DNA of 64,000 bases from an uncultured Opitutia bacterium (GCA_913049555.1 CAJWYM010000004.1:15509-79508); one strand, 5' to 3'; counted from the stretch's first letter, positions 2,801 through 51,877 are shown. Numbers and translations are program-made. The notes: a model not told the origin generated them from the letters alone.

Positions 2801-2801
2801 A

Positions 2802-3230
2802 ATGCTGACAGAACTTTTACACCAAGCAGTTTCTTTACTTTTAAATCCAGTCATTTTACTTCTTCTGATGATGGCAGTCATTGCGATTCTTGAAATCGGA
2901 ATTGCCCTGGGTGAGCGATTGGGAGGAATGCAAGAAATGGCAAAAAGCAAGTCCTTTCAATCTGTAGAAAAAATCGCTAAAAAAAGAATTGAACGAGCAG
3001 ACCTGATCACTCGGATTGCACCTATTTTAGGCTTGATGGGAACGCTCATTCCTCTAGGACCCGGCCTCGCTGAATTGAGTGTAGGAAGTTTTGCAGGACT
3101 AGCAGCCTCTATTAGCATAGCATTTGATACCACAGTTTTAGGATTATTCTCTGGAATGATCTGCTTTATCATCGGTCGTAAAAGAAGGCGATGGTACGAC
3201 CAACTATTAGTCCAAATTGAAGGAAAATAA
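2802..3230 (+). CDS. Small MotA/TolQ/ExbB-family proton-channel-like membrane protein
   Basis: ATG at 2802 lies 1 nt after the cobN stop; the ORF-track start at 2763 is a TTG extension inside cobN. There are three hydrophobic helices. Signature-like segments are APILGLMGTLIPLGPGL and AFDTTVLGLFSGMICFIIG. Confidence 0.7.
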   Translation: MLTELLHQAVSLLLNPVILLLLMMAVIAILEIGIALGERLGGMQEMAKSKSFQSVEKIAKKRIERADLITRIAPILGLMGTLIPLGPGLAELSVGSFAGLAASISIAFDTTVLGLFSGMICFIIGRKRRRWYDQLLVQIEGK

Positions 3231-3238
3231 TAATAATA

Positions 3239-3538
3239 ATGAAATCACGAAATTGGAAATCAGACCGATTTATAGAGGAATCTGAAGATCCGCTTGAATC
3301 TATGGCCAATCTGGTAGATATCATGCTTGTATTCATCTGTGGGTTAGTAGCCGCTTTAGCAGCCTCTAGCGAAAACTTCATACAGCAATACAATACAAAA
3401 GAAATTCTCCAAGAGGAAAAAGAACTTCCTCAAATACCAGAGGGGATTGGCAATCAGGGTGGAAATGGATATCAAAAAGTGGGGCAAGTCTATAAAGACC
3501 CAGAAACTGGAAAACTAATCTTAGTGGGCTCTGAGTAA
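3239..3538 (+). CDS. DUF2149-like single-pass membrane protein (ExbD/TolR-like anchor)
   Basis: 99 aa with an acidic N-terminus, one TM (LVDIMLVFICGLVAALAA) and a soluble tail. It follows the MotA-like gene after a TAA-TAA-TAA-TAA run. The family assignment is from memory of DUF2149 neighbourhoods. Confidence 0.55.
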   Translation: MKSRNWKSDRFIEESEDPLESMANLVDIMLVFICGLVAALAASSENFIQQYNTKEILQEEKELPQIPEGIGNQGGNGYQKVGQVYKDPETGKLILVGSE

Positions 3539-3583
3539 AAAAGCAATTTTTGCTCCTGAGAAAAAGAAAAATAAGTAGAAAGT

Positions 3584-4177
3584 ATGTTAGAAAGTAGAAA
3601 AAAGAAAGTCGTTGAAAAAAGAATCGCCTCTTGTGAAGGAAATGAAAAAGGGCTTCATATGGTGCACACCGGAAATGGGAAGGGAAAGACAAGTGCTGCC
3701 ATGAATATGGTCTATCGCCATCTAGCTCATAATATGCCAGCGGTGGTTGTTCAATTTGTAAAGTGCGAGGATGAATATCCAGATGGAGATCGTCGACTCC
3801 TGATGAAACTTTCTGAGCAAGGATTCCCAGTCACTATTTTAACGATGGGAACTGGTTTTTCATGGAACTCAACAGACAAAAATAAAGACATTGAGGCTGC
3901 TGAAAATGCCTTTAAAAAAGCTGTAGAATATTTAAATGATGAGACCACTAGCCTTGTCCTCTTGGACGAAGTTCATATCGCAATCTCACTCGCTTATCTC
4001 GATGAAGGTAGAGTTCTCGAAGCTATTAAAAACAAACCCGACTTCAAGCACGTGGTGACGACAGGTCGTAGAGCCCCTGAGAGCTTTATTGAAAATGCAG
4101 ATCTGGTTACTGAAATGAAACAAATCAAGCATCCAATGTCCAAAAAGATTCCAGCCCAAATAGGCATCGAATATTAA
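3584..4177 (+). CDS. cobO: Cob(I)yrinic acid a,c-diamide / cob(I)alamin adenosyltransferase (CobO/BtuR type)
   Basis: HTGNGKGKTSAA P-loop followed by VVQFVK. Size (197 aa) and the basic N-terminal extension match BtuR/CobO. Confidence 0.9.
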   Translation: MLESRKKKVVEKRIASCEGNEKGLHMVHTGNGKGKTSAAMNMVYRHLAHNMPAVVVQFVKCEDEYPDGDRRLLMKLSEQGFPVTILTMGTGFSWNSTDKNKDIEAAENAFKKAVEYLNDETTSLVLLDEVHIAISLAYLDEGRVLEAIKNKPDFKHVVTTGRRAPESFIENADLVTEMKQIKHPMSKKIPAQIGIEY

Positions 4178-4308
4178 AAACCCAAAGATGGACTCGATCG
4201 TGCTTTTTTAAAGCAGTAAAATTGCTTCAAAAAAGATCCGCAGAGTTCCAATCAAATAAAATATTGTCTTCTATATCACAATCCTAATCCTCTTCCGAAA
4301 TATTGCCC

Positions 4309-4920
4309 ATGATAGAAAATTTAGAATCTGTTTTTTTAGACCTTGGTAGAGTTCTGTTTCATTTAAACTACCGCGAAACCTTCGAAAAAATCTTTTCCAA
4401 GAGTCGACTCGACCAAGATAAACTCAAAAGAGTACTGACTTACAATGGCTTGAATATTGAGTTTGAAACTGGAAAGATTACAGAGGAAGCGTTCTTTCTC
4501 AAAATGATTCATCAAGCAGAGTTTACAGGCTCGGACAAGGAGTTCATCCAGCCTTGGATTCAGATCCTTTCACCCATTAAAAAAAACCTTGAATTTGCTC
4601 AAGAGTTGGCCCAAAAATACAAGATTGGAATCATCTCTAACACCAATGAGGCCCACCTACGATTTATGGAGAAAACAGGAGGACTCGCTGCTTTTAGTGA
4701 ACATAGAATTTATTCTTGTCGTGTTGGCTATATGAAACCGAGGAAAGAAATTTACAAAGCAGCCCTATCCCAAAGCAATGCAATTCCTCAAAGATCGATT
4801 TTTTTAGACGATAGAGAGGAGAATGTTGAAACGGCTCAGTCTCTAGGATTTCATGCCTATCTATTTCCCAAAGGAGAAGACTTACGAAAATTTTGGAACG
4901 AAAAGATCTTACATGTCTAA
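4309..4920 (+). CDS. HAD-IA family phosphatase (YihX-like motifs)
   Basis: Motif I is FLDLGRVLF, motif II is IISNTN, and motifs III/IV are KPRKEIY and FLDDREENV. ATG at 4309; the track start at 4303 is TTG. Its stop overlaps the cobU start by 8 nt (ATGTCTAA). Confidence 0.8.
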   Translation: MIENLESVFLDLGRVLFHLNYRETFEKIFSKSRLDQDKLKRVLTYNGLNIEFETGKITEEAFFLKMIHQAEFTGSDKEFIQPWIQILSPIKKNLEFAQELAQKYKIGIISNTNEAHLRFMEKTGGLAAFSEHRIYSCRVGYMKPRKEIYKAALSQSNAIPQRSIFLDDREENVETAQSLGFHAYLFPKGEDLRKFWNEKILHV

Positions 4921-5443
4921 TAAGATTCATCTTGTTCTTGGAGGGAGTCGAAGTGGCAAAAGCAGCTACGCTGAGAAATTAGCGGAAGAACAGGAGCGCC
5001 CCGTTGTCTATGTAGCCACATGTCGAACTGAAGGACTGGATGAAGAAATGCAAACAAGGGTGCAAGCGCACCAAATTGGAAGACCCCAAGATTGGATCAC
5101 ACTGGAAAATCAATTTCACTTTCCTGACATTGTCCAAAGATACAAAGACTCTTGTATACTGATAGATTGTTTGACCTTGTGGATAGGCAATGCCATGGAA
5201 ACCTTGCAAGATGAAGCGGAGATCAACAAACAATTGGAAGATGCATGCAAATCAATCCAATCCCTCGACGTTCACGTCTTGATTGTGAGCAATGAGCTGG
5301 GAATGGGATTGATTCCTGAGAGTCGCATAGGTCGTCAATTCAAAGACTTATGTGGTCGAGCCAATCAAATGATTGCTGCTCACGCAGATAAAGTGACTTT
5401 TATGATCGCTGGCATTCCATGGCAGATAAAACCTGAGAGATGA
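4913..5443 (+). CDS. cobU: Adenosylcobinamide kinase / adenosylcobinamide-phosphate guanylyltransferase
   Basis: LVLGGSRSGKSSYAE P-loop near the N-terminus and VSNELGMGLIPE. About 176 aa from the ATG at 4913. Confidence 0.9.
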   Translation: MSNKIHLVLGGSRSGKSSYAEKLAEEQERPVVYVATCRTEGLDEEMQTRVQAHQIGRPQDWITLENQFHFPDIVQRYKDSCILIDCLTLWIGNAMETLQDEAEINKQLEDACKSIQSLDVHVLIVSNELGMGLIPESRIGRQFKDLCGRANQMIAAHADKVTFMIAGIPWQIKPER

Positions 5444-6537
5444 ATAATCCTCCGCGTGTCAATCAAACCCACCATGGAGGAAAGGTATACGAAGCTGCCA
5501 AAAAACTAAAATGCCTGCCCTCTGAAATCTTAGATTTCAGTGCAAATCTCAATCATTATACACCGGAAATTAAAGAAAAGGATTGGCTAAAATTCAAAGA
5601 TTCTATTTTTCAATATCCCCCTGAAGAAAACGAACTCAAAGAACTTTTAGCTCATTTGTATCAAACGGATCCAAATTTTATAATTCCTACTGTTGGTGCA
5701 ATCCAAGCTCTACACTTGGCCTGTTCTTTCTTTAAAGGCAAGAGAATGCTCTGGCTGGAACCTGGCTTCTCTGAATACTCAAGAATCGCAAGCATTGAAG
5801 GCCTAGAGCCAGTACCTATTTCGGTAGAGTTGTCTTTATCCGCAGAGGAAAAATTTCAAAAACTCGTAAAACATTCCAAAGAGGGAGACGTGATCCTGCT
5901 TTGCATCCCACAAAACCCAAGTGGCGAGCAACTTCAATGGAGTGCTTTGATACCAGTCGTTGAAGAATTTTCCGATCGAAATATTTCTTGGATATTGGAT
6001 GAATCTTTTATTGAAATGACCCAATCCAACTATCAAGGCTCCCTTGAATTTCTAGATCAATTTCCAAACCTATTCTCCTGTAGATCTTTGACCAAAAACT
6101 GGAAAATTCCAGGTTTGAGATTTGGTTTCCTATCGACTTCTAATGCAGAAATGCTTGAAAGATCCGAAAAGAACAGGAAACAATGGTCCATCTCGGGGGT
6201 AACTAATAGCTGGGCTCAAACCTTCCTAAATAAAAATCTACTCCAAAAAAACCAAACAGCGATCGCTCGTTTATTGCTGGAAACACAAAGCTTAATAAAA
6301 ACTCTCGAGCAGAACTTTTACTGGAAAATATACCCCACAGATACAAGTTTCTTTCTTTGTGAATTACCGAACCCTCTGGATGCCTTGGATTTATCACAGC
6401 AATTGTTACAAAAAAAGATACTCCTCAGAACTTACCCAGGGGATCCATCTCTGAAAGATAGGTCTCATCTTAGAATAGGCTCCAGAACAAAAGAACAAAA
6501 TCTCCTCCTAATTGAAGCTTTGAGAGAAACAATCTAG
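5440..6537 (+). CDS. cobD: Threonine-phosphate decarboxylase-like class I/II aminotransferase (CobD; CobC in some nomenclatures)
   Basis: ATGA overlap with cobU. PLP-fold motifs are PQNPSGEQ and RSLTKNWKIPGLRFGF. It sits in a B12 nucleotide-loop context. Confidence 0.8.
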   Translation: MNNPPRVNQTHHGGKVYEAAKKLKCLPSEILDFSANLNHYTPEIKEKDWLKFKDSIFQYPPEENELKELLAHLYQTDPNFIIPTVGAIQALHLACSFFKGKRMLWLEPGFSEYSRIASIEGLEPVPISVELSLSAEEKFQKLVKHSKEGDVILLCIPQNPSGEQLQWSALIPVVEEFSDRNISWILDESFIEMTQSNYQGSLEFLDQFPNLFSCRSLTKNWKIPGLRFGFLSTSNAEMLERSEKNRKQWSISGVTNSWAQTFLNKNLLQKNQTAIARLLLETQSLIKTLEQNFYWKIYPTDTSFFLCELPNPLDALDLSQQLLQKKILLRTYPGDPSLKDRSHLRIGSRTKEQNLLLIEALRETI

Positions 6538-6696
6538 GAAACTCTTTAGACCTGTATTCTTGATAGAACTTTGATTTTAATGGCTGCAATGAGTTCAAAA
6601 ATTTTCACGGATCCAAAAGCCTTCATTTATGAATTGAAACACTCATTATGCTCGGATGTCTTTTGCTTGAATCTCACTTTCTAGCATCCATTGATT

Positions 6697-7461
6697 TTAA
6701 AGAGCCAGAGAACAAAGAATCAGAACAAAGCACTCGACAGTTAAAATACTTGCACCTAAGCAATCCCCAGTAATTCCATTAAAATTTCTTTTAAAGTAGA
6801 GATAAAAGACTCCCACCACAAATGCAGACGATACAGAAAGCAATAAGGCATGCCAAAAACTCAATAACAAAGAGGCCAAGAGAGTTAACAAAACCCAATG
6901 AAGAGAACACCTGAATGTAGTAGGAGCTTCTAATGAATTGCCGATCCCTGTTCCTTTTTCACCAGACCTTTCCAAGAAAGCCAAAGCTCTCATCAAGGGC
7001 AAAGCCGCAGTTCTGCTAAAAGCGACGGATAAAAAGAGGGATACGAAAAGAAGCTTTGGATAAACGGCCAAAGCGCTTATAGAGCCAAAGCGAATCAAAG
7101 AACTCAGAACAATTGCCAAAACGCCATAGGTTCCCAAGCGAGAATCCCTCATAATTTCCAGCTTTTTCTCTAATTCAAATCGACCTGCACTGTCTGCCAA
7201 ATCAGCTAGACCATCTTCATGGATGCACCCTGTGAGCAGAACCTGAAATCCAAGAACTAGGGCAGCAAGGAGTAGCGGTGGAATCCAAAAAGAGAGAACC
7301 AGCCCGAAAGAACCTGCTAGAAGTCCAAGGAAAAGGCCGACTGGAGTAAACCATCGCGGAATTTTACTCCAGCAATCTGGGTACTTTTCACATAAATCAT
7401 AAGGAATTGGAATCCTTGATAAAAAACTCAGAGAAGCTAAAAATGTTGCAATAAGCTTCAC
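6697..7461 (-). CDS. cobS: Adenosylcobinamide-GDP ribazoletransferase (cobalamin 5'-phosphate synthase)
   Basis: Polytopic membrane protein with an HEDGLADLADS motif. GTG start forms a GTGA overlap with the cobT stop. Confidence 0.9.
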   Translation of the reverse strand: MKLIATFLASLSFLSRIPIPYDLCEKYPDCWSKIPRWFTPVGLFLGLLAGSFGLVLSFWIPPLLLAALVLGFQVLLTGCIHEDGLADLADSAGRFELEKKLEIMRDSRLGTYGVLAIVLSSLIRFGSISALAVYPKLLFVSLFLSVAFSRTAALPLMRALAFLERSGEKGTGIGNSLEAPTTFRCSLHWVLLTLLASLLLSFWHALLLSVSSAFVVGVFYLYFKRNFNGITGDCLGASILTVECFVLILCSLAL

Positions 7462-8486
7462 TGACTGACGCCTGCACTTTCAAAAGTTGCCATATTTTGG
7501 TAACAACTCAAGGCCCCTTGAATCACCCCCATAGCCATTGCAGCTCCGGAGCCCTCTCCTAGATGCATTTTAAAATCCAATAGAGGTTTTAGGCTATAGT
7601 ACTTCAAGAGTTTTAGATGAGCCGGCTCTTTCGAACAGTGCCCAGATTTGCAAAAGGCCAAACTACTTGGTTGGATTTCGAAAGCAATCGAGGCAGCAAC
7701 CGTCGCAATCAGACCATCCAAAACAATAGGGATTGAAGAAGCACTGGCTCTTAAAACAGCAGCACACATCGAGACAATTTCTCTCCCTCCGAGTCTGCGA
7801 ATTCGTTCCCAAGGGTCGTTTAAGTATTTGTGGTGAAGCTCTAAAGCTTGTTTGATTCTTTTTGCTTTGTGTTGCATCTGATTTGCGTTGATACCCGTTC
7901 CTCGTCCCACTAAAGACTCTGGATCTTCTTGAAGCAAAGCAGCACACAAAGCAGTCGCACTGGTCGTATTGCCAATTCCCATTTCCCCAATTGCATACAA
8001 ACTCGAATTTGATGGCACCGCCTCCCATCCTCTTTTAAAAGCACGGACAAATTCTTCATGATTCATTGCAGCTGCCTCAGCAAAGTTTTGAGTGGGACTT
8101 TCGATTCCACAATCAACTGCTTGAAAGTGAATTCCATAAGTAGAACAAATGGCGTTGATTGCAGCGCCCCCAGCTATGAAATTGGCAAACATTTGGGCGT
8201 TCACTTCAGAAGGATAGGCACTCACACCATCCTTAGCAATGCCATGACTACCCGCAAAAACCGTAAGATGGAAAAGCTTTTTATCCAATGAATCGGAACC
8301 CTTACAACGAGCCATCCAACTTACTAAATCTTCCAATTCGCCCAAACTACCAATCGGCTTTGTTTTTTGATCCCATTTGGCTGAGACTGCATCATCAATT
8401 GATCTTTCCTTCATGGAGATCGATTCAATCTCTTGGATCATCGAGGCAGGCAATAACAACTTTATACTTTCGGGTGCTTCAACCAT
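7458..8486 (-). CDS. cobT: Nicotinate-nucleotide--dimethylbenzimidazole phosphoribosyltransferase
   Basis: GEMGIGNTTSATAL, VFAGSHGIA and HLGEGSGAAMAMG are typical of CobT. Confidence 0.92.
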   Translation of the reverse strand: MVEAPESIKLLLPASMIQEIESISMKERSIDDAVSAKWDQKTKPIGSLGELEDLVSWMARCKGSDSLDKKLFHLTVFAGSHGIAKDGVSAYPSEVNAQMFANFIAGGAAINAICSTYGIHFQAVDCGIESPTQNFAEAAAMNHEEFVRAFKRGWEAVPSNSSLYAIGEMGIGNTTSATALCAALLQEDPESLVGRGTGINANQMQHKAKRIKQALELHHKYLNDPWERIRRLGGREIVSMCAAVLRASASSIPIVLDGLIATVAASIAFEIQPSSLAFCKSGHCSKEPAHLKLLKYYSLKPLLDFKMHLGEGSGAAMAMGVIQGALSCYQNMATFESAGVSQ

Positions 8487-14264: not shown

Positions 14265-15647
14265 ATGTCCTCAGGATTAATCGGCAGTATTTACAAAAAT
14301 GCGCAAGCACTCAACTACCATCAAAGAAATGTTGAGATTAATGGAAATAATTTAGCCAATGTAAACAATCCAGAATATGCTCGGCAAAGAACTCTGCTAA
14401 AGAACGGATACATGACCGGATCTCGGTATGGTTTAGAAACCAGTGCGATTGAATCCGATGGTTTGGAGCATTTGCGAGACAAGCTTCTAGACAACCAAAT
14501 CACCAAACAAATTTCCACTACGGAATCCCTAAAGGAACAAGCGGAGTTGGTAAACTTAATGACTGCCGTGATTGCCGAGGAAATCCGCAGAGCCGAAGAA
14601 CCCCAAAGCTTAGATGGTGCTCAAGAGGAACAAATCGACACTGGCACGATCTCCCGAGCAATCGACCGTTTTTTCAATTCTTGGCACGAACTTTCAGCAG
14701 ATCCAAACAACATAGCAGCCAAGCAGGTGGTTTACAGCGAAACCGAAGCTATGATCCAAACTTTCAGTGTTACTGGAGAAAGACTCACGAACCTCAAAAC
14801 AAACTTTGAAACATTGAGTGCGGATGCTAACGACAAGATCGATTCTCTACTCAATGAAATTGCTCAGTTAAACACACTGATTTCCAAAACTGAATTTATC
14901 AACCAAGGACAGGCGGTGACCTACAGAGATGACAGGCAGGCCGCTATAGAAGAACTGGCAACTTACATGGATGTCACCGTTTCAGAAGATCCTCTTGTCA
15001 ATGGTGCTGTTACAATCAAATCAGGTTCGACCGATTTTGAGTTGATCAATGCCGCCACTGGAAGAACTGGAGAGAAATTCGAAGATCAGGCTACTTCAGT
15101 TCTTTCCACTGGAGGGAAACTCCATGCCTATGCCCAAGTTACCAGTGCTACAGGTAGTCTGACCAATTTGATTACAAGCTTAACCAAATTGACCTCCACT
15201 ATAGTGACCGAGGTAAACACTGCCTACACTGGCTTTTTAGCTGGTACTACTATTGCCACCTTGGCCTTTGGGACTGGGATTAATAAAGCTTCTGACATAG
15301 CTGCATCTGCCAGCACATCGAGTTCAGGTGCAAATGATATTGCTTTGGCTGTCGCTGAAATTAAGGACAAAACGCACACAGGCTTAGACGAAATGAACAT
15401 GATTGACTACCTAAGTTCTAAAGTAGCTGAGTTTGGTTCACAAGGCAAGTTGATCAACGACAGCTTAGACCACCAGACAGATATCTTAGATTCCTTAAAA
15501 AACAATCGTCAATCAGTCAGTGGGGTCTCCATTGATGAAGAGGTTGCCAATATGATGGCCAACCAAAGAGCATTTCAGGCTTCTTCTAGAGTGATCACTA
15601 CCATAGACAGCTTACTGGATTTAGTAGTCAACGGCTTGATTCGTTAG
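14265..15647 (+). CDS. flgK: Flagellar hook-associated protein 1 (FlgK)
   Basis: The N-terminus (GLIGSIYKNAQALNYHQRNVEINGNNLANVNNPEYARQR) and C-terminus (SGVSIDEEVANMMANQRAFQASSRVITTIDSLLD) match the conserved FlgK/rod-hook termini. Confidence 0.88.
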   Translation: MSSGLIGSIYKNAQALNYHQRNVEINGNNLANVNNPEYARQRTLLKNGYMTGSRYGLETSAIESDGLEHLRDKLLDNQITKQISTTESLKEQAELVNLMTAVIAEEIRRAEEPQSLDGAQEEQIDTGTISRAIDRFFNSWHELSADPNNIAAKQVVYSETEAMIQTFSVTGERLTNLKTNFETLSADANDKIDSLLNEIAQLNTLISKTEFINQGQAVTYRDDRQAAIEELATYMDVTVSEDPLVNGAVTIKSGSTDFELINAATGRTGEKFEDQATSVLSTGGKLHAYAQVTSATGSLTNLITSLTKLTSTIVTEVNTAYTGFLAGTTIATLAFGTGINKASDIAASASTSSSGANDIALAVAEIKDKTHTGLDEMNMIDYLSSKVAEFGSQGKLINDSLDHQTDILDSLKNNRQSVSGVSIDEEVANMMANQRAFQASSRVITTIDSLLDLVVNGLIR

Positions 15648-43221: not shown

Positions 43222-44574
43222 TTAATTCCGGTCGATTTCCCCTAAGATTTGCCACTGCGTATCATCAAAAAACCACAAGGCAGTTTCCAGTTCGACAATC
43301 TCTTTTTCAAGAACCTGACTAGTCATCCACCATTTCTCAAAGAGTTGCATTCGCTCTTGAAAAACACTCATGGTAGTGGGAACGCTTAAGCTATTTAAAA
43401 TTTGCCATCTCACTTGTTGCTTCTTCAATTGAGTACGAACTGTATTCAATTGTTCATTCACTTGACTCAACTGAAGCAACCAAGAAACTATTTTCTTTTC
43501 TAAAACCTTGTCTTGAACTTCTCTTTCTCGAATAAATTCTTGTTTTTGCCGCTTGATCTTTCCCCTTGTGTCTAATTGCCATATCAAATCCGCTCCTACC
43601 CTTATATTGTCAGTATTCCAAAGACTTTTGGACTGTCCTGAAAATCTAAATAAAGAGGGGGTTGAAACCGATAAATTTAAATCCGGCCAATATTGTAAAT
43701 CAATTTGGCGAGATCTTAGACGTGCACCTTCAAGTTCAATCGCCATCAGTTTAATCTGATCTTGTGCAATGTGCTCAATCAATTCTAAATTGAGCCCGCC
43801 CTGATCCACATAAGGCAATTTAATAAGTTGAGTGGGGCGTATACGCCAAATTTTACTAGAATCACTCAAGTGATCATTCAACCGCAATTGGAGTTTGCGA
43901 CCTTTTTCCTCAAAGACTTTTTCTGAACTGTTATCTTTGTAGAATAAGATGGCAGCGAGGTCTTCTACGGGCAAACGTTTTTTAAAACTGTCTTTCCACA
44001 GTGAAAATTCAATGCTTTTCTCGAGCATCTCTTGTTCACGAAAAATTTTATACAATTCAATGACCGCTTTTCGGATTTTGAGTGTTTTGGAGGTATTGGC
44101 TCGAACGAGACTCAATCGGCTCGTATACAATCTTGAGGGAATCTGTTGTAGATAAGCAAAATTAAAAAAACTATCAATTCCATAGGTCCAACCATTTGCA
44201 AATACAGAAGCAGATCCACTTATGAACTCGGAATAACCTCCTTTTAAGGTAAGTTTAGGAATAAGATCTCGGTATACAAATTTAAGATCATTTTCTGCTC
44301 TGAATAAATCCATTTCAGAAGTAGTCAGATCAATGTTGCTTTCTAAAAGGATTTCTAAAGCTTCTGTAAAAGAAACAAATTCTTCATCACTGTTGTCTAA
44401 CTTATCTAAATTTGATCTCCACAGCTCTCTTAGATTTACCTCATTCGTCTCTAAATTTTCTTCAACACTTTTACAAGAAACTGATAAAAACATTGTATAC
44501 AAACAAAAACAAAGGCTGCCAAAAATCGACAGCCTTTGTTTCTTGAAAAAAATATCTAGAAATTTACTCAACAA
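43222..44574 (-). CDS. TolC-like outer-membrane factor family protein (possible lipoprotein)
   Basis: 450 aa with the signal ending FLSVSC. Two-fold helical/strand repeat pattern with a typical LTEALEILLESNIDL...AENDL opening. Its start overlaps the secretin stop by 11 nt. Confidence 0.55.
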   Translation of the reverse strand: MLSKFLDIFFKKQRLSIFGSLCFCLYTMFLSVSCKSVEENLETNEVNLRELWRSNLDKLDNSDEEFVSFTEALEILLESNIDLTTSEMDLFRAENDLKFVYRDLIPKLTLKGGYSEFISGSASVFANGWTYGIDSFFNFAYLQQIPSRLYTSRLSLVRANTSKTLKIRKAVIELYKIFREQEMLEKSIEFSLWKDSFKKRLPVEDLAAILFYKDNSSEKVFEEKGRKLQLRLNDHLSDSSKIWRIRPTQLIKLPYVDQGGLNLELIEHIAQDQIKLMAIELEGARLRSRQIDLQYWPDLNLSVSTPSLFRFSGQSKSLWNTDNIRVGADLIWQLDTRGKIKRQKQEFIREREVQDKVLEKKIVSWLLQLSQVNEQLNTVRTQLKKQQVRWQILNSLSVPTTMSVFQERMQLFEKWWMTSQVLEKEIVELETALWFFDDTQWQILGEIDRN

Positions 44575-47332
44575 CTGCTCGACGAGTTTCGGTTCCAGTC
44601 GGGGATACGATCACCGGATTTTGGAACAAAGAGTTAGGTTTTAAATTGCCAATACGCTGTTTTGATGGAGAACCCCCCGGAGAGATTAAGTTCGCAGTAA
44701 CAAATATGAGTAAGTTTCTCTTAACACTGGTCTCTCCTCGGTTCTGAAAAAATCTACCCACAATCGGCAAGTCTCCAATAACTGGAACAGAATCGTTGAT
44801 TGTTTTGATCTCATTACGTGTCAGTCCACCGATTACAACCGTCGCACCATCAAATACACTCACTTGGGTTTCTACTATTCTTGTTGAGAAAATCGGCTGG
44901 AAATAACCGGATGGAGCCGTAACAGTAGTGCTCCCAGAAATTGCAATATTAGGAGAACCATATTGGACAAAACCCTCAAACTCAGTGACTATAGGAGACA
45001 AACGAAGAGTGATGATATCCCCTTGCTCAACAGTGGGAGTTACGATCAACTCTACACCCACTAACCTTGATTGGAAATCACTGGGTAAGGGTGAAGTGAT
45101 TCCTACGGATGCAGGCGAAGTTGTATTACCACCGCCACCGCCGCCGCCACCACCACCAGTAGTAACTTCTCCAGCTTCATACTCTGTGGGGTATAAAAAT
45201 TCTTGACCCACTTGAATTCTGCCTTCCATACCAGCCAACATTGTAACCTTCGGGGCTGACATTAGGTCAGAAGTCGATTTCCTAGAAAGGGCATTGATTA
45301 CTAAATTAAACTCGGTATTTCTAAGAATACCTCTGAAAGAAATCAAATCCGATGCCCCAGTTGCCAGATCTGCAGTCGATGGGAAAGGTGGAGGTAAATT
45401 AGGAACCTCAGTTGTGGATTGAGCACCCGAAGAGGAGCTTTGGATAATTCTTGTAAAGCTATCACTGTCAGCAGCTGTAAAAGTCTCGGCTAATTTTCGA
45501 TTTTGAGTATCGAACGATCCTGAAGTTCGAGTCTCATCTGTATATACATTGTTCCAGTCAAAGCCTAATTCATCCAGATCGTTTTGATTGACCTCTAAAA
45601 ACTTCGCTTCAACTTCAACTTGTTTGGTTTCATTGTATCTTCTGAGAATCGTCCGGACTCTTTCAAGATTCTTTGTAGATTGAGTAATAATCAACTCCGT
45701 TCCCTCATAGGCAAGAGTAGATCCAGGAATGCTGAAACTAACACCCGCTCTTTCAAAAAAGCTTTTGATCGCTGATTCATCCCCACTGCCTGAGTCAGAA
45801 GAAACGGAATCACTGGGATCTGCAAATGGATCCACTGCAGAGTCAGAACTGCTCCCCCCTCCACTACCTCCGGTTATACGGACTACGGCTGCTTGACTGA
45901 TAGGGAAAAAATCTGTTTCAAGAAATTCTTGGTTGTCCCCCATGCTTGGCTTTACAACAATGGCATCCTCTGTAACTTCAAAAGAATAGCCTACTTGTTG
46001 AGTGACGAATTGAAGCACTCGCTCTACCGTTAGATTCCTCAGATTGATATTTACTTCAGGATCACTGTTAGATGGATCGAGGAGAACAACATTCACTCCC
46101 TTTTCACCCTCGGCGGCAGTAAAATCATATTCCATGGACAATTCACTAATAGTCTCAACTACATTTGAAAGAGGCATACCTATGAACTGAGCTCTCGGAA
46201 CTTTGATTTTTTTTATTTTTGATTGCAGCGCACCGCTACTTTTTACTTCAGGCGTGGGGGGTTCTTCAAAAAGAAAAACTCGTGGTCTTTGCCATGAGGA
46301 ACTCACTTCTTCTAATAATTGAGATCTGGTTTTTAGACGAGTAGCATAATTTTGAGAGTCTAACCTTTCAGCAATTTTTTTAAGGAAAAGATTGGATTCA
46401 ATGTGCCCAGGTTGAATGGTATCGATCTCTTGAAATGCTCGGCTCGCTCCTTCAAAATTTCCAGCTAAGTAAAGACTTCTACCTTTGAGTAAAAGGTCCT
46501 TAACCTTTTGTTCCTGTTTTGGAAAACTAGGATCCATTCTATCAGTATTTTGGCGAAAAGGATTGTACGCATCATGGTCAATCAACTTCTGAAACTTCTG
46601 AGATTTACGGTTTTCCCCAAACTCTTGATTGTAGGTTTTAAGTTCTTCTTGAGCGTCTTTATAGCGAAGGTCTTCATAGGAACTCACAGAAGCTTCAAAT
46701 TGCTCATCTCCCATTTCTTGCTGTAAATCCGATTCTACAGAGCGTATTTGTCTGTCAGAACCAAAATACTTTTTGTAATCCATCACTTGTGAGACTGCGT
46801 CCTCATATTCATTGGCCTCAAAAGTGTCCTTAGCCTGTGTGAAAAAAACTTTTTTTCTCTTATCAGCTAAATCTTCAGTTAAAAATTTTGTCGCAATACT
46901 GTTGTAGGGTTGAATGTTCGCTTCAGCTGTTTGTAGCTCCTTCAAGGCCAAAGCGTAATTTTTTTCTTTCAATGCTTGTCTGGCAAAGCTCATCCTTTTT
47001 TTAGCATCCACAATTGCGTCTTTTTGCTTCTCTTCAACATTGCTAAGTAGAGTATTGTACTTATTTGCCTCTGATTTATCGACAGCATCTGCACCTTGAG
47101 ATTCTAACTCCGCCTCCAAAGCTTCCATTTGATTTGTGATTTGACTGTCTGCGGGAGAGGCGTTGGCAATTTGTTCTAACAACGCTCGAGCCTCTTTGAC
47201 ATTCCCATTTTCTCTTGCTTCAATCGCTCTAGTTAAAAGTTTCATTCTCTCGGCCTCACTCATGGAGGACTGACCATTTAAAGTGCCCAAAAAGAGTAAA
47301 ATAGAGAAACAAAATGTTCCAAGATGTTTCAT
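44564..47332 (-). CDS. pilQ: Secretin (PilQ/GspD family) with a long TPR-like N-terminal extension
   Basis: The C-terminal secretin core is GVELIVTPTV...VVIGGL...VPVIGDLPIVGRFF...KRNLLIFVTANLI. The signal peptide follows the ATG at 47332 (MKHLGTFCFSILLFLGTLNG). The first ~330 aa are helical repeats. Confidence 0.88.
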   Translation of the reverse strand: MKHLGTFCFSILLFLGTLNGQSSMSEAERMKLLTRAIEARENGNVKEARALLEQIANASPADSQITNQMEALEAELESQGADAVDKSEANKYNTLLSNVEEKQKDAIVDAKKRMSFARQALKEKNYALALKELQTAEANIQPYNSIATKFLTEDLADKRKKVFFTQAKDTFEANEYEDAVSQVMDYKKYFGSDRQIRSVESDLQQEMGDEQFEASVSSYEDLRYKDAQEELKTYNQEFGENRKSQKFQKLIDHDAYNPFRQNTDRMDPSFPKQEQKVKDLLLKGRSLYLAGNFEGASRAFQEIDTIQPGHIESNLFLKKIAERLDSQNYATRLKTRSQLLEEVSSSWQRPRVFLFEEPPTPEVKSSGALQSKIKKIKVPRAQFIGMPLSNVVETISELSMEYDFTAAEGEKGVNVVLLDPSNSDPEVNINLRNLTVERVLQFVTQQVGYSFEVTEDAIVVKPSMGDNQEFLETDFFPISQAAVVRITGGSGGGSSSDSAVDPFADPSDSVSSDSGSGDESAIKSFFERAGVSFSIPGSTLAYEGTELIITQSTKNLERVRTILRRYNETKQVEVEAKFLEVNQNDLDELGFDWNNVYTDETRTSGSFDTQNRKLAETFTAADSDSFTRIIQSSSSGAQSTTEVPNLPPPFPSTADLATGASDLISFRGILRNTEFNLVINALSRKSTSDLMSAPKVTMLAGMEGRIQVGQEFLYPTEYEAGEVTTGGGGGGGGGGNTTSPASVGITSPLPSDFQSRLVGVELIVTPTVEQGDIITLRLSPIVTEFEGFVQYGSPNIAISGSTTVTAPSGYFQPIFSTRIVETQVSVFDGATVVIGGLTRNEIKTINDSVPVIGDLPIVGRFFQNRGETSVKRNLLIFVTANLISPGGSPSKQRIGNLKPNSLFQNPVIVSPTGTETRRAVVE
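45128..45157 (-). repeat. (GGY)10 glycine-codon tract inside the secretin core
   Basis: The plus strand reads ACC ACC GCC ACC GCC GCC GCC ACC ACC ACC, encoding TT-GGGGGGGGGG-NTT. It is almost pure G/C in an AT-rich gene. Confidence 0.9.
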
Positions 47333-47428
47333 GTTAATATTCCAATTTGTGTGTAGGTGTTTCATTATTTTAGTCGCCGATAAAAATTATTTATAATAGA
47401 AGAATGAGAAGAGGAGAGTTTCAAGCAT

Positions 47429-48400
47429 TTAATTCAGTAGAAAGGGATCTTGAGTGGAATCCTCAGGACTGTCCTCAGATACTTCTTCTAGGATGTTTCC
47501 CTCTAAATCGTAAAGAACCTCTTTTTCCAAAAGCATTTCAATACTCGTTCCGTCCTCTTTATTTGTTTTGGAAATCAGAACTTTTTTATCATCAAAGTAG
47601 ACTTCGGTTAGCTTGTATGTAAAATTTTCTTCAAAGTTAAAAACTTTGAAAGTCTTAAAGGGAGATGAACTGGAATCAAAACGATTCAATTGAATAATCT
47701 CATTTACAGCTGGATCGAGTTGAGAAGTGATCGTAATGTTTAAAGTTCCAGTGTACACTTTCTCCTCTCCGATTTGATTGGTGAGGGTAAACTCTTTACC
47801 AGATTCCAAATCGCGAACTCTAAGCCTGGCAACTCGAACCAACCGCAACCCTTTTTCATTTATGATCTCCTCTTTTTTTTCAGTAAAAGAAAGGAACTTT
47901 ATTTTTGCTTCTCGATTCGTTTCACCTATTCTACCAGATACTACATCGGTAGAATCTTCCGTATTAATAATGGAAATCTTTGCCTTCTCCACCGTTCCAG
48001 AAAAGCTGCTATACTGATACCTAAATTTCTCCCTGCTAATATCGGTAAATACAACACCAAAGGGAGGGATTACTTTCGGTGGTGGAGGAAGGACAAGAAC
48101 TCCAGGTTCCTTAGCAATCAATTCCCCATCATCATCAATATAAATTTTGGGAGGTGTAAACACAGAATATTTCCAAAATTCGTCGGGAATGTCCCTTTGC
48201 ATTTTTGGCTCCTTCCACTCCTCAGGATCAGCAATATTTTGATCTACAACCACATTTTCATAATCGTTCATCTGAGCGAAACTAGGCAAATCCAAATCAA
48301 GAGCTTTCAAACCATTGTATTGGGTTAGGGTCAAAAAACCTGTTATGAGCAGAGTTATCAGAACTGCTAATAAAATAAGTTTGTCGTATAATTTTTCCAT
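47429..48400 (-). CDS. Bitopic hypothetical protein of the pilus-like cluster (position of a PilP analogue)
   Basis: N-terminal TM (LILLAVLITLLITGFLTL), a Pro-rich segment (VLVLPPPPKVIPPFG), a beta-rich body and an acidic tail. Confidence 0.7.
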   Translation of the reverse strand: MEKLYDKLILLAVLITLLITGFLTLTQYNGLKALDLDLPSFAQMNDYENVVVDQNIADPEEWKEPKMQRDIPDEFWKYSVFTPPKIYIDDDGELIAKEPGVLVLPPPPKVIPPFGVVFTDISREKFRYQYSSFSGTVEKAKISIINTEDSTDVVSGRIGETNREAKIKFLSFTEKKEEIINEKGLRLVRVARLRVRDLESGKEFTLTNQIGEEKVYTGTLNITITSQLDPAVNEIIQLNRFDSSSSPFKTFKVFNFEENFTYKLTEVYFDDKKVLISKTNKEDGTSIEMLLEKEVLYDLEGNILEEVSEDSPEDSTQDPFLLN

Positions 48401-48412
48401 AACAAATTCTAA

Positions 48413-49471
48413 TTACTCAAACTCACTTTGTTGATCAAGAGTTTCATTGCTACCCAACATTTCTTCAATATCGTAAATATACTCTATATACTCAACCACG
48501 ACTGTAAAAGAAGAAGCATCTTCTTTAATCAGAGGAGGTCGAGTGGGCATGGTGACTTCTTTAACATCCTCTTCGTTTTCTTTTTCCTCTTGTGGGCTTA
48601 CCCCAAATAAAGCGGCGAAAGCACTGCTGGGTTCGGTTGTATCTACTTGTCTTCGAACTTCATTTGACCTGAAAGCTGATTCTTCAATTTCTTTTTTAGA
48701 GGAACTCTTGACTCGGATGTCTTGAACAATCAAAGGATAATAACTGTCATCGGAAACTCGGTTTAAAAACTTCCTAAGAGAGGAAGTGTGACCATAAAAT
48801 GACAATTCAAAGGCCAATGTGTCCACGACTCCTTCTTTTCTTACCGAAAGTAATGGGTTGAGTTTGTACCTATCTTCGGCAGTTGAAGTTCTCTCCTGAC
48901 CATCTTGATCTTGATATTCTAAATATTCTCTTTTGATATTTGTAATTCCATCCGGACCAGATTCAATCAAAGCTTTCGATAAATGTTCTAACAACTGCCT
49001 TTGCTTGTCGATAATGGAAACATAGGGTTTCATCTCCTCAGTAAAGGTGGTTCCTTCAAAATACTGGGCAAAACCAAAGCCAAATTTTTCAGGTATCTTG
49101 ATCTTAAATTGTTCCTTATTTTCATCAGATCTGCAAAGATTCGTCAAAATTTTAATATGGTCTCGAACCGATCCAAGAAATCGATTGTCATCGGTTTCAG
49201 TTAAAATTGGGTTTCGAGCCTCTACGAGTCGAGTCTTTCTATCATAGACTTGAGCTAGATGAGTTATGTTTTTTTCAGAGTCTAATTCTACTTGCTCGGT
49301 AAGAGAGGGTTGACTTTCGAGAAGTTCTCCAAGGGCTCTTTGATATCGGTTGATATTTTTTGTAATTTTATTTTCTTCAGAATGGGCAAGAAAAAGCATC
49401 ACAATCCCCACTAAAAATAGAGCTATTAAAACTCCAATTGATACAAAAAATGTGATATTTTTTTTAACCAT
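48413..49471 (-). CDS. Amuc_1100-like / PilO-like bitopic protein
   Basis: N-terminal TM (ITFFVSIGVLIALFLVGIVMLFL). Blocks FGFGFAQY, LLEHLSKALIESG, LAFELSFYGHTSSLRKFLNRV...PLIVQDIRVKS and FTVVVEYIEYIY parallel the Akkermansia Amuc_1100 sequence as I recall it. ATG at 49471. Confidence 0.6.
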   Translation of the reverse strand: MVKKNITFFVSIGVLIALFLVGIVMLFLAHSEENKITKNINRYQRALGELLESQPSLTEQVELDSEKNITHLAQVYDRKTRLVEARNPILTETDDNRFLGSVRDHIKILTNLCRSDENKEQFKIKIPEKFGFGFAQYFEGTTFTEEMKPYVSIIDKQRQLLEHLSKALIESGPDGITNIKREYLEYQDQDGQERTSTAEDRYKLNPLLSVRKEGVVDTLAFELSFYGHTSSLRKFLNRVSDDSYYPLIVQDIRVKSSSKKEIEESAFRSNEVRRQVDTTEPSSAFAALFGVSPQEEKENEEDVKEVTMPTRPPLIKEDASSFTVVVEYIEYIYDIEEMLGSNETLDQQSEFE

Positions 49472-49521
49472 AACACTCAAACTCTAAAAACAATTAAAAT
49501 ACTCAATAATATTCAATCAAA

Positions 49522-51207
49522 CTAAAGGGGTTTGTCTTGATTCACTTCAAAGGTAATTTCAAAAGGCAAAACTTTTAAACCCTTATTTAAATTTTCAAAT
49601 CCTATTTTAGAACTTTTTTCTTTAACGATAAAATCAGAGGCAATCAAACCGTTTTTAAATTCGATAATGCGATCCCCAAGTATTTTTTGATCCACCGCTT
49701 GAATCACTCCATCTTCATTTTTTTCACTTCGAACCAAGAGTCTGCCTTTAAGATCCAAATAGGAAACCGCTGGATTTCTTGAGTTTCCCTGAGAACGATT
49801 GACCTTCATATCATCCAACCAAACATCTTTGATATCAAAAAGGATCTCCTGAATATTGCTTAAAAATAGAATCCAATTGTATTTAGAATCTACTATCGAA
49901 CCGATCTCATTGATCGCATCTTTATACTTTTCCGCAATAGTTATATTGGTTTCTATCTTGTTGCGGGAGTCTTCAAGGGGTGGAATTTCGTTTTTAATCA
50001 TCCTTGTAAACTTCCTTTTTTGAGAAATTTCTTGATTTTTCAAGAAATAGGAACCAAAAGGCAAGATCGCCAATAAAAGGGCCGAAACAATTAAGATGGG
50101 TTTCTTTTTGTTAAACTCCTGAGTAGCTTGAAATTCGTTGGGCAGTAAATTCACTCCAACGGGACTTTCAACATAATCCCGAGCTACCGATCCTACCACC
50201 TCATTTAAGTTGAATTGATCAATAGACATTGACTCTTCATCAATCCCTGATCCTAATGTGAGTGAGGTTAAAGTCTGGAAGTAATCAATTTCAACCCTTT
50301 GTTTTTCACCAATAAATTCAGACAAACCGCCAACTAAAGATCCTTTGCCAGTTAAGAATATGTGAGTCGGAGACTTGCCCTTTTTTTGTCTTTTATAAGT
50401 AACGATCGATCTCGTTACTTCTTGGTTCAGTCGTTTAAAAAACGTTTCAGAGGCTTGTTGCATGACATGAACAGCTGGATCACTGTCATCGACCTCGAGT
50501 TCCCCAGAAAAATACTGGATTTTGAGATCATCCGCATCCTCAAAGCTCATACCCAAGTTGTCTGAAATATTTTGGGTTAAGGTATTGCCACCAACATTGA
50601 TCGTCCGAACTAAAAATCCGCTTGGATTTATAAAAAGTAAATTCGTAGATCTTGAACCAATGTTAATAATTAAATTTTCAGTATCCGCAGTTTCGTAGCC
50701 AGAAAAATGAAATGCGTTCACGTCTAAAATTGAAGACGCACCCATTGAGACAGGAAATAAACCCAGCGTATTTACCCGAGAACAAAAATCTTTGGCAATG
50801 TCTTTTTTGATGGCAATCAATAAGGCTTCATTGTCAATATCATCTTCGCTGACGATGTGACTGTCCCAAACGACATCTGTTAAAGGATAGGGGATATTTT
50901 GTTGGGCTTCAAACTCAATAATCTGTTGTTGTTTGTGTTCCTCAACCCGTGGAACACGAATAGTTTTTGTCAGCAATAAGAATCCCGGCAAAATAAAGTG
51001 AGTTTTTCCTGAAATTTTGTTGTTTTTAGTCAGGCTTTCTAAGCTTTCAATAACCGAGTCCAACCATTGGTAGTCGTCTGAATGTTCATAAGATAAAGAT
51101 TCAGAAAAAGTTTTATCCAAAACTAAGCGATCCTCTCCAACAGAAAATGTGCTTATGGATACATGGCTAGCACCACAATTAACAACAATCTTTTGTTCTG
51201 CTTTCAT
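49522..51207 (-). CDS. pilM: PilM-like actin-fold ATPase fused to a TM and a PilN-like periplasmic domain
   Basis: IVVNCGASHVSIS, LIINIGSRSTNLLF and INVGGNTLTQNISDNLGMSFEDADDLK are PilM/FtsA-like. A TM at about residue 370 (ILIVSALLLAILPFGSYFL) is followed by a ~170-aa domain. Confidence 0.8.
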   Translation of the reverse strand: MKAEQKIVVNCGASHVSISTFSVGEDRLVLDKTFSESLSYEHSDDYQWLDSVIESLESLTKNNKISGKTHFILPGFLLLTKTIRVPRVEEHKQQQIIEFEAQQNIPYPLTDVVWDSHIVSEDDIDNEALLIAIKKDIAKDFCSRVNTLGLFPVSMGASSILDVNAFHFSGYETADTENLIINIGSRSTNLLFINPSGFLVRTINVGGNTLTQNISDNLGMSFEDADDLKIQYFSGELEVDDSDPAVHVMQQASETFFKRLNQEVTRSIVTYKRQKKGKSPTHIFLTGKGSLVGGLSEFIGEKQRVEIDYFQTLTSLTLGSGIDEESMSIDQFNLNEVVGSVARDYVESPVGVNLLPNEFQATQEFNKKKPILIVSALLLAILPFGSYFLKNQEISQKRKFTRMIKNEIPPLEDSRNKIETNITIAEKYKDAINEIGSIVDSKYNWILFLSNIQEILFDIKDVWLDDMKVNRSQGNSRNPAVSYLDLKGRLLVRSEKNEDGVIQAVDQKILGDRIIEFKNGLIASDFIVKEKSSKIGFENLNKGLKVLPFEITFEVNQDKPL

Positions 51208-51280: not shown

Positions 51281-51877
51281 TTATTCCGCATCTTTTCGCT
51301 TAAATTCTGGCTGATTCTCAAGTTTTGCAGTTACAAAATTTGGTGCCAAATAAGACGGAACTAATAAGTCTTCGGTTTCAGAAACCCCTGCATTCGCTTT
51401 GGCAATAAATGAAGTAGCGTTTTTTTGTAATTTTTTGGAAAGATGATCTTTGTGGGGCTCCACTTTTTGACCATCCACCTCTATTTCTACCATCCAAGCG
51501 TAAGGATCTTTTGAAAGTTTGTCTCTTTCGGAAATAGAGCCAGGTAAAGCAAAATAGATATTTTTAGGAGCCGACGTTTTCATAGTAATGATTTCAACTT
51601 CAGATCGGTAAAAGTCATAATGATTATCAGGCAAATTCTCAGATTTTGGTTGATAAGCAAGGGTCAAAATAACCTTAACATTGTCAAGGTAGTCTTCATT
51701 TCGAGCTTTTTCTCCCTTAGGATTCTTTAAAGGGTCAATTTTTACTTCAGCAACAATCCAATTGTCCGTAGAGTAAGCAAATTTGACGCCTTTCACAGAC
51801 ACTAAATCCTCTTTCGCATGGAGAAAAGTAGATAACAAAACAATGAGTATGACAGTAGGTAAATGAGGGAAATTCAT
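51281..51877 (-). CDS. Secreted hypothetical protein, first gene of the pilus-like cluster
   Basis: Signal peptide (PTVILIVLLSTFLHAKE) and a beta-rich 198-aa protein with no recognised motif. Confidence 0.65.
   Translation of the reverse strand: MNFPHLPTVILIVLLSTFLHAKEDLVSVKGVKFAYSTDNWIVAEVKIDPLKNPKGEKARNEDYLDNVKVILTLAYQPKSENLPDNHYDFYRSEVEIITMKTSAPKNIYFALPGSISERDKLSKDPYAWMVEIEVDGQKVEPHKDHLSKKLQKNATSFIAKANAGVSETEDLLVPSYLAPNFVTAKLENQPEFKRKDAE

Follow-up and report, generated by a model that had tools for sequence, protein, structure and literature searches.

A Divergent Open-Ocean Member of the Amuc_1100 Family in a Five-Gene Secretin Cassette

The Locus

We analyzed a 64,000-nucleotide stretch of a contig from an uncultured Opitutia bacterium (GCA_913049555.1, CAJWYM010000004.1:15509-79508; hereafter the window), and in it a minus-strand gene encoding a 352-amino-acid (aa) bitopic protein (hereafter the target). 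This protein belongs, as a divergent member, to the Amuc_1100 family. Its gene sits within a tight, co-directional block of five minus-strand genes that is collinear with Amuc_1102-1101-1100-1099-1098 of Akkermansia, known as the MUL2 locus, and there the target is probably the counterpart of PilO in an alignment complex of the PilM/N-O-P-Q type, part of a secretin-based machine. The features of the block, from its first gene to its end, are as follows.

51281..51877, minus strand: gene in the Amuc_1102 position, the first of the cassette; 198-aa secreted protein with weak sequence homology
49522..51207, minus strand: PilM-PilN fusion, orthologue of Amuc_1101; 561 aa
48413..49471, minus strand: Amuc_1100-family gene (the target); 352-aa PF28028 bitopic protein, probable PilO-equivalent
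47429..48400, minus strand: gene in the Amuc_1099 position (the PilP slot of pilMNOPQ); 323-aa bitopic protein
44564..47365, minus strand: secretin, orthologue of Amuc_1098/PilQ; 933 aa, with an N-terminal region resembling tetratricopeptide repeats
44505..44543, minus strand: terminator-like hairpin with an 18-bp stem and a T-run, found by consensus scan only

The open reading frame (ORF) of the target covers 48413..49480 if it is opened at an upstream TTG. We set the start at the ATG at 49471, which gives a protein of 352 aa beginning with MVKKN, because the closest homologues and the gene calls of public contigs begin there. The hairpin lies directly 3' of the secretin stop codon and is probably the 3' end of a five-gene operon.

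Homology to Amuc_1100

A sequence-only reading of the window had matched the target to Amuc_1100 by eye, at the level of motifs. As comparison sequence we used an Amuc_1100 whose residues 31-317 are 100% identical to PDB 6KNY/6LAD and whose full length matches human-gut metagenome loci. BLASTP between the two proteins gave E 0.005 over 38 residues, and neither single-sequence phmmer nor a 3-sequence profile of the target retrieved anything relevant from the PDB; detecting the relation therefore needs deep profiles. Seeded with the target and two close relatives, an exhaustive HMMER search collected 636 family clusters at E <= 1e-3, and a profile of the target with 130 relatives had Amuc_1100 as its sole significant match in the PDB (E 8.8e-12, the next match being at 0.068). 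The same 131-sequence profile also matched the truncated core construct 6LAF (E 2.7e-6). An independent profile of the target family, rebuilt locally, found Amuc_1100 at E 3.5e-15, and hhalign, run against aligned Amuc_1100 variants from Akkermansia, returned E 1.4e-12 and a probability of 97.7% across 235 columns, placing residues 1-257 of the target on 1-241 of Amuc_1100. Identity in the aligned columns is about 15-17%. Alignment to the family hidden Markov model with hmmalign places just the N-terminal ~190 residues of Amuc_1100, the second half being placed by hhalign and BLASTP only.

Public family models agree. NCBIfam NF038287, "Amuc_1100 family pilus-like protein," matched residues 5-316 of the target over model positions 4-297 of 326 (E 1.7e-19, 70.4 bits). 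This score does not reach the equivalog cut-off of 180 bits, and Amuc_1100 itself scores 300.6 bits. Judged by these scores, the target is homologous and lies outside the narrow, Akkermansia-centered equivalog. In a public collection of precomputed labels (E <= 1e-5), the exact 352-aa protein carries the Pfam label PF28028 "Amuc_1100," as do relatives of the target with 60% and 49% identity. The proposed family membership thus stands the alignment check, and the resemblance, in E-value as in structure, is clearly better than that of random bitopic proteins.

Four blocks of residues had been paired with Amuc_1100 by eye. Both hhalign and hmmsearch put three of them in the same register: C..FGFGFAQY with C..WLGFQVY, in which the cysteine before the GF motif is also aligned; LLEHLSKALIESG with INSLVNKLAECG; and LAFELSFYGHTSSLRKFLNRV..YPLIVQDIRVKS with PLEIAFQGDRESVLKAMNAIT..YLFTVNSIRIRN, the only block covered by the BLASTP match. 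The fourth pairing, FTVVVEYIEYIY with VFVQVSLNLVHF, found no support in the sequence. A C-terminal sub-profile scored -1.2 bits on the C-terminus of Amuc_1100, and of the 548 shuffles that gave a score (from 1000 made), 188 equaled or exceeded the real one. We therefore rejected this block as sequence evidence after the shuffle test; it is equivalent by position only: a disordered linker precedes it, and it is the last strand.

These low similarities speak for a likeness due to chance or composition, as between unrelated bitopic coiled-coil proteins: the pairwise match is short, the shallow searches of the PDB failed, identity is low and the fourth block is no better than shuffled sequence. 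We consider this explanation already refuted and give it practically no weight. The profile and profile-profile comparisons reach E 1e-11 to 1e-15 with low bias, their alignments extend into the alpha/beta core, the core construct 6LAF is itself matched, Amuc_1100 is the top structural match (see below), and the four neighboring genes are homologous and collinear.

Architecture and Predicted Fold

The sequence-only reading had described an N-terminal transmembrane segment, a helical region, an alpha/beta core, an acidic insert and a final strand, and hydrophobicity and an AlphaFold2 model bear this out. The sole strong hydrophobic segment comprises residues 10-28 (hydropathy KD19 = 3.0; next best 0.72). 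The model, built from the 131-sequence alignment, has a predicted local distance difference test score (pLDDT) of 84.7 and a predicted template modeling score (pTM) of 0.72. In it the transmembrane helix runs into a long helix (residues 6-52); helices 59-83 and 95-114 come next, and then two alpha-beta-beta units. The first consists of helix 145-170 and strands 175-182 and 216-227, the second of helix 229-241 and strands 247-257 and 319-331, so that the predicted core has the four strands of the Amuc_1100 fold. A low-confidence insert separates strands 3 and 4, and a C-terminal helix ends the model. The insert (residues 258-318) is acidic, with D or E at 15 of 61 positions and a net charge of -6.

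When the model was compared with the PDB using Foldseek, ranks 1-10 all went to chains of Amuc_1100 (E 7e-8 to 1e-6), with template modeling (TM) scores of 0.65-0.79 normalized to the crystal chain and a best root-mean-square deviation of 3.8 A. PilO came after them: the Myxococcus xanthus chain 3jc8_Oa at E 1.7e-3, Pseudomonas aeruginosa PilO 2rjz_A at about 0.02 (0.024; probability 0.98) and 5uvr with a probability of 0.91. The suggested superposition of a predicted model on Amuc_1100 and on PilO/EpsM structures thus succeeded for Amuc_1100 and, at a distance, for PilO; EpsM/GspM and GspL structures were absent among the matches at E <= 10.

The target and Amuc_1100 (6KNY, 6LAD, 6LAF; PF28028; NF038287) share topology, the four-strand core of two alpha-beta-beta units, a disordered linker before the last strand and their slot in the cassette. 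They differ in the linker, which is acidic and E/K-rich in the target and Pro/Ala-rich in Amuc_1100, and in the motifs FGFGF, DKQRQ, TLAF and G-T..LR.FLN, which run through the family and are present in the target but degenerate in Amuc_1100. The core of Amuc_1100 has previously been described as two alpha-beta-beta motifs similar to proteins of type IV pili and of type II secretion systems (T2SS) (PMC13119276).

The solid homology to Amuc_1100 also brings in a different view of the protein. Amuc_1100 is reported to be enriched in outer-membrane fractions, has been seen outside the cell by immunofluorescence and is said to be on type IV pili (PMC5332112, PMC10688800). The target could accordingly be a surface-exposed, pilus-associated or outer-membrane protein that decorates or forms an extracellular fiber, its hydrophobic segment being a cleaved signal peptide. 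We find this unlikely. In the model the hydrophobic segment is predicted to be continuous with the 47-residue helix 6-52, as in PilO anchors, and the L-F-L-A preceding the polar region, with F at -3, would on direct reading make a poor signal peptidase I site. The N-terminus (MVKKNITFFVSIGVLIALF) lacks the prepilin G/F...E5 motif, that is, a class III signal peptide with G at -1, F or M at +1 and E at +5. The Foldseek matches resemble PilO, not pilins, and the target occupies the place of an alignment subunit, with a PilM-PilN fusion on one side and a secretin on the other.

The Partner Proteins of the Cassette

The 561-aa protein encoded directly upstream has a PilM ATPase-fold domain at residues 11-333 (Pfam PilM_2, E 6.5e-22) and matches the NCBIfam model "Amuc_1101 family PilM-like pilus complex protein" at E 2.2e-85; by BLASTP it is 26% identical to Amuc_1101 (E 3e-43). 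It carries the motif NLLP at residues 353-356 (window 50140-50151), directly before a transmembrane helix and a periplasmic domain of ~190 aa. This motif is the hallmark of PilN, and its significance lies in the binding of PilM by PilN. The top PDB profile match of the C-terminal part is M. xanthus PilN (3jc8_Na), in register from the transmembrane helix onward. We conclude that PilM and PilN are fused in the Amuc_1101-type protein. In its Akkermansia orthologue, NIDLEP takes the place of NLLP.

Between the PilN-like domain and the Amuc_1100 family, hhalign detected no paralogy of the PilN/PilO type. The comparison of the two profiles returned a 12-column juxtamembrane motif alone (probability 80%). 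It reads M.F.KKKP.L against M..KK.P.F and stands before each transmembrane helix, at window 49450-49471 and 50095-50130, both on the minus strand. This motif may be a common cytoplasmic or membrane-proximal signal.

For the 323-aa protein in the Amuc_1099 position, a profile built without Akkermansia detected Amuc_1099 at E 2e-8 to 9e-6, and pairwise BLASTP gave E 0.034 only. The protein has no Pfam match, and its profile no match in the PDB. At an Akkermansia-related locus (L123, 10595-13810), a long ORF runs through the secretin gene and also overlaps the Amuc_1099 gene at its end. It drew secretins into an unrestricted iterative Amuc_1099 search, and the repeat run without Akkermansia was used instead. 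This ORF may be a mere upstream in-frame extension.

The 198-aa protein at the head of the cassette is weakly connected by sequence. It has no pairwise BLASTP match to Amuc_1102, and a profile built without Akkermansia detected Amuc_1102 at E ~1e-4 among 2197 ORFs. The only PDB match of the Amuc_1102-like profile was 7DSZ, which is Amuc_1102, at a non-significant E 0.45.

The secretin matches Pfam Secretin (E 4.4e-31) and the NCBIfam model "Amuc_1098 family type IV pilus outer membrane protein" (E 3.5e-117), and is 28% identical to Amuc_1098 over ~800 aa (BLASTP E 3e-71). It contains a run of ten glycines at residues 737-746 (window ~45128-45157, minus strand), in a segment that BLASTP pairs with a G/N/Y-rich segment of Amuc_1098. 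Read on the opposite strand, the run appears as a poly-proline ORF, which is spurious.

Directly downstream of the secretin, beyond the hairpin, lies a TolC/OEP-like gene for an outer-membrane factor (window 43222-44574, minus strand), which matches Pfam OEP at E 1.5e-5 and 25.4 bits, the cut-off being 22 bits. Among the fetched loci, homologues were found only on contigs of the same lineage; none was seen at 58 loci from GTDB genomes or in Akkermansia, so that the gene sets this lineage apart from Akkermansia MUL2.

A second alternative concerns the kind of machine that the secretin serves. The target could be a GspM/GspL-like assembly-platform subunit of a T2SS-like apparatus or of a DNA or macromolecule transporter, and the cassette would then move glycan or protein cargo. 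GspM/EpsM proteins are bitopic assembly-platform components with a ferredoxin-like periplasmic domain, as the target is predicted to be. The secretin scores as well against GspD (E 6e-37) and MshL (E 9e-36) as against PilQ (E 6e-30), and there are no adjacent pilin genes. T2SSM_b is the Pfam family with the largest number of matching family members, though the matches are weak and come from only 4 of 131. Akkermansia MUL2 has been tied to the acquisition of mucin (bioRxiv 10.64898/2025.12.30.696933), and aquatic relatives take up fucoidan (PMC13174399). The structural comparison that retrieved PilO retrieved no GspM, EpsM or GspL, whereas the partner protein is PilM-like with a PilN motif, which is typical of type IVa pili rather than of T2SS. 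Genes for GspE, GspF and GspC are absent from the window, and the genomic context of the target is not that of a T2SS. We therefore hold a T2SS-type subunit to be quite improbable, even less likely than a surface protein.

The Target as a Probable PilO-Equivalent

We favor, as the likely role of the target, that of a PilO-equivalent. We assign it the PilO slot because a PilM-PilN fusion lies upstream and a bitopic protein and a secretin lie downstream, which is the placement of pilO after pilMN and before pilPQ. Like PilO (2RJZ/5UVR; 3JC8 chain O), which Foldseek ranks next after Amuc_1100 with probabilities of 0.97-0.99, the target is predicted to be bitopic, with a short basic cytoplasmic N-terminus, one transmembrane helix, a periplasmic helical, coiled-coil stalk and a ferredoxin-like core of two alpha-beta-beta units. 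It differs from PilO in its longer helical region, its ~60-residue disordered insert and its extra C-terminal helix, and the locus differs from PilO systems in the fusion of PilN to PilM.

In such a complex, the target would be anchored in the inner membrane, and its stalk and core would form a pair with the periplasmic PilN-like portion of the fusion protein encoded upstream. Jointly with the Amuc_1099-like protein, the target would connect the PilM platform in the cytoplasm with the secretin of the outer membrane. The machine might produce a pilus-like fiber for attachment, or it might serve the capture and uptake of glycans as reported for Akkermansia MUL2.

Several observations weigh against this assignment. 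The target has no Pfam match at E <= 1, the PilO family PF04350 included; PilO sequences are absent among the PDB matches of its profile at E <= 10, and PilO is absent from the families most often matched by the 131 relatives at E <= 0.1. The few weak matches of family members to T2SSM_b (best E 0.002) give no sequence link to PilO, PilN or GspM. The structural matches to PilO are far weaker than those to Amuc_1100, with TM-scores of 0.40-0.58. Among the partners, the PilN-likeness of the 561-aa protein consists of a motif, gene order and a marginal profile match (E 0.014), and only its position gives the 323-aa protein a PilP role. We found no genes for a pilin, a PilB/PilT ATPase, PilC or Gsp proteins within the window. 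Finally, the placement of Amuc_1100 on the outer membrane or pili in the Akkermansia literature (PMC5332112, PMC10688800) conflicts with an inner-membrane role.

Distribution and Source Organism

The identical protein and its cassette are present on TARA Oceans and other marine metagenome contigs. A scan of GTDB species representatives with a 14-sequence family alignment found 58 loci, nearly all labeled Puniceicoccaceae, Opitutaceae, Opitutales or Coraliomargaritaceae. Adding the window, five Akkermansia loci and the marine contigs on which the identical protein was found makes a set of 68 loci, of which 40 have the complete 1102-1101-1100-1099-1098 order, the others being cut by contig ends. 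The window has a GC content of ~36-42%. The earlier suggestion that the family extends into AT-rich, environmental Verrucomicrobiota is borne out by this composition, by the TARA Oceans contigs and by the relatives in metagenome-assembled genomes (MAGs) of Opitutales and Puniceicoccaceae.

The full cassette was also found on contigs from two MAGs labeled Polaribacter sp. and Zhongshania aliphaticivorans (L008 and L042). These are probably mis-binned Verrucomicrobiota DNA rather than cases of transfer.

In the nearest genome-resolved relatives, the target and the Amuc_1099-like protein are ~30% identical to their counterparts, the Amuc_1102-like protein ~37%, and the PilM-like protein and the secretin ~40%. 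Judging from these identities, the Amuc_1100-like and Amuc_1099-like proteins appear to be the fastest-evolving of the cassette. Because even the nearest genome-resolved relatives are only ~30% and ~40% identical, the source is probably a deep-branching marine relative of Puniceicoccaceae/Opitutales-type groups. An Rfam search found no rRNA or other RNA genes in the window, hence no rRNA-based taxonomy was available.

The rest of the window holds housekeeping genes, among them cobalamin genes and those for a sigma factor, FlgK, acetyl-CoA carboxylase, LeuA, FtsK and MutS. A cobalamin biosynthesis and salvage cluster occupies window 11-8486 (CobN, CobO/BtuR, CobU, CobS, a CobT-type phosphoribosyltransferase and an aminotransferase). 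A lone gene for a FlgK-like flagellar hook-associated protein at window 14265-15647 on the plus strand (Pfam FlgK_D1, E 5e-26) suggests that the source organism is flagellated.

The window cassette and Akkermansiaceae MUL2 (amuc_1099-1102 with the secretin amuc_1098) have gene order and orthology in common. The window cassette is nearest, at 30-40% identity, to MAGs of the Puniceicoccaceae/Opitutales type, and its flanks differ: LeuA and Lnt adjoin it, in place of CoaE and Rho in Akkermansia.

Relation to Earlier Work and Meaning for the Family

Every element of this interpretation is already public: the models of the family and its partners in Pfam and NCBIfam, the crystal structures of Amuc_1100 and Amuc_1102, the likeness to PilO and PilN, and conservation in aquatic bacteria. 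Homologues of Amuc_1100 have been reported mainly from Verrucomicrobia (PMC11573778). Amuc_1100 has been likened to PilO/PilN and its cluster, the MUL2 locus, described as necessary for acquiring mucin (bioRxiv 10.64898/2025.12.30.696933). Akkermansiaceae from aquatic habitats and further Verrucomicrobiales were reported to share MUL2 synteny at low identities; this held less for Chthoniobacterales and not for Methylacidiphilales (PMC13174399, published in 2026). The same study proposed that MUL2 serves attachment and uptake in aquatic Akkermansiaceae, which take up labeled fucoidan; its main text does not mention Opitutales or Puniceicoccaceae.

Against this background, three things are new. 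The target is a very divergent open-ocean member of the family, below the NCBIfam naming threshold and nearest to Opitutales/Puniceicoccaceae; the Amuc_1101-type protein is recognized as an NLLP-bearing PilM-PilN fusion; and a lineage-specific TolC-like gene follows the operon. The value of the family call is confirmatory, since it was correct and the family was already recognized. The sequence-only reading had also argued for a primary role in an envelope machine rather than in host signaling. Conservation of all five cassette genes in marine bacteria that live freely makes this inference reasonable, but it is not new, given the published similarity to PilO/PilN and the aquatic conservation of MUL2.

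The target comes from a marine planktonic bacterium to which TLR2 signaling is irrelevant; selection in a free-living marine bacterium cannot have acted on host TLR2 signaling. TLR2 agonism and a location on the surface or on pili are properties reported for the Akkermansia protein alone. A broader proposal, which we put forward tentatively and with clearly less confidence than the PilO-like role itself, is that the Amuc_1102-1098 cassette may be an ancient, Verrucomicrobiota-wide machine derived from PilMNOPQ, reaching well beyond Verrucomicrobiales into marine plankton of the Opitutales/Puniceicoccaceae kind. It might have been selected for the capture or import of large glycans (selfish uptake) or for attachment to particles, with the Amuc_1100 family as its inner-membrane PilO-like subunit. 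If this is true, the TLR2 activity and the "outer-membrane" status of Akkermansia Amuc_1100 would be incidental.

Our results modestly extend the published range of MUL2-type loci, that is, Akkermansiaceae and Verrucomicrobiales, toward Opitutales-type marine lineages. Amuc_1100 has been marketed and studied almost wholly as a host-active effector, and a clear homologue now stands in a complete cassette of host-free open-ocean bacteria. This supports a structural native job for the family in a secretin-linked envelope machine, and mechanistic work on it could draw on free-living relatives.

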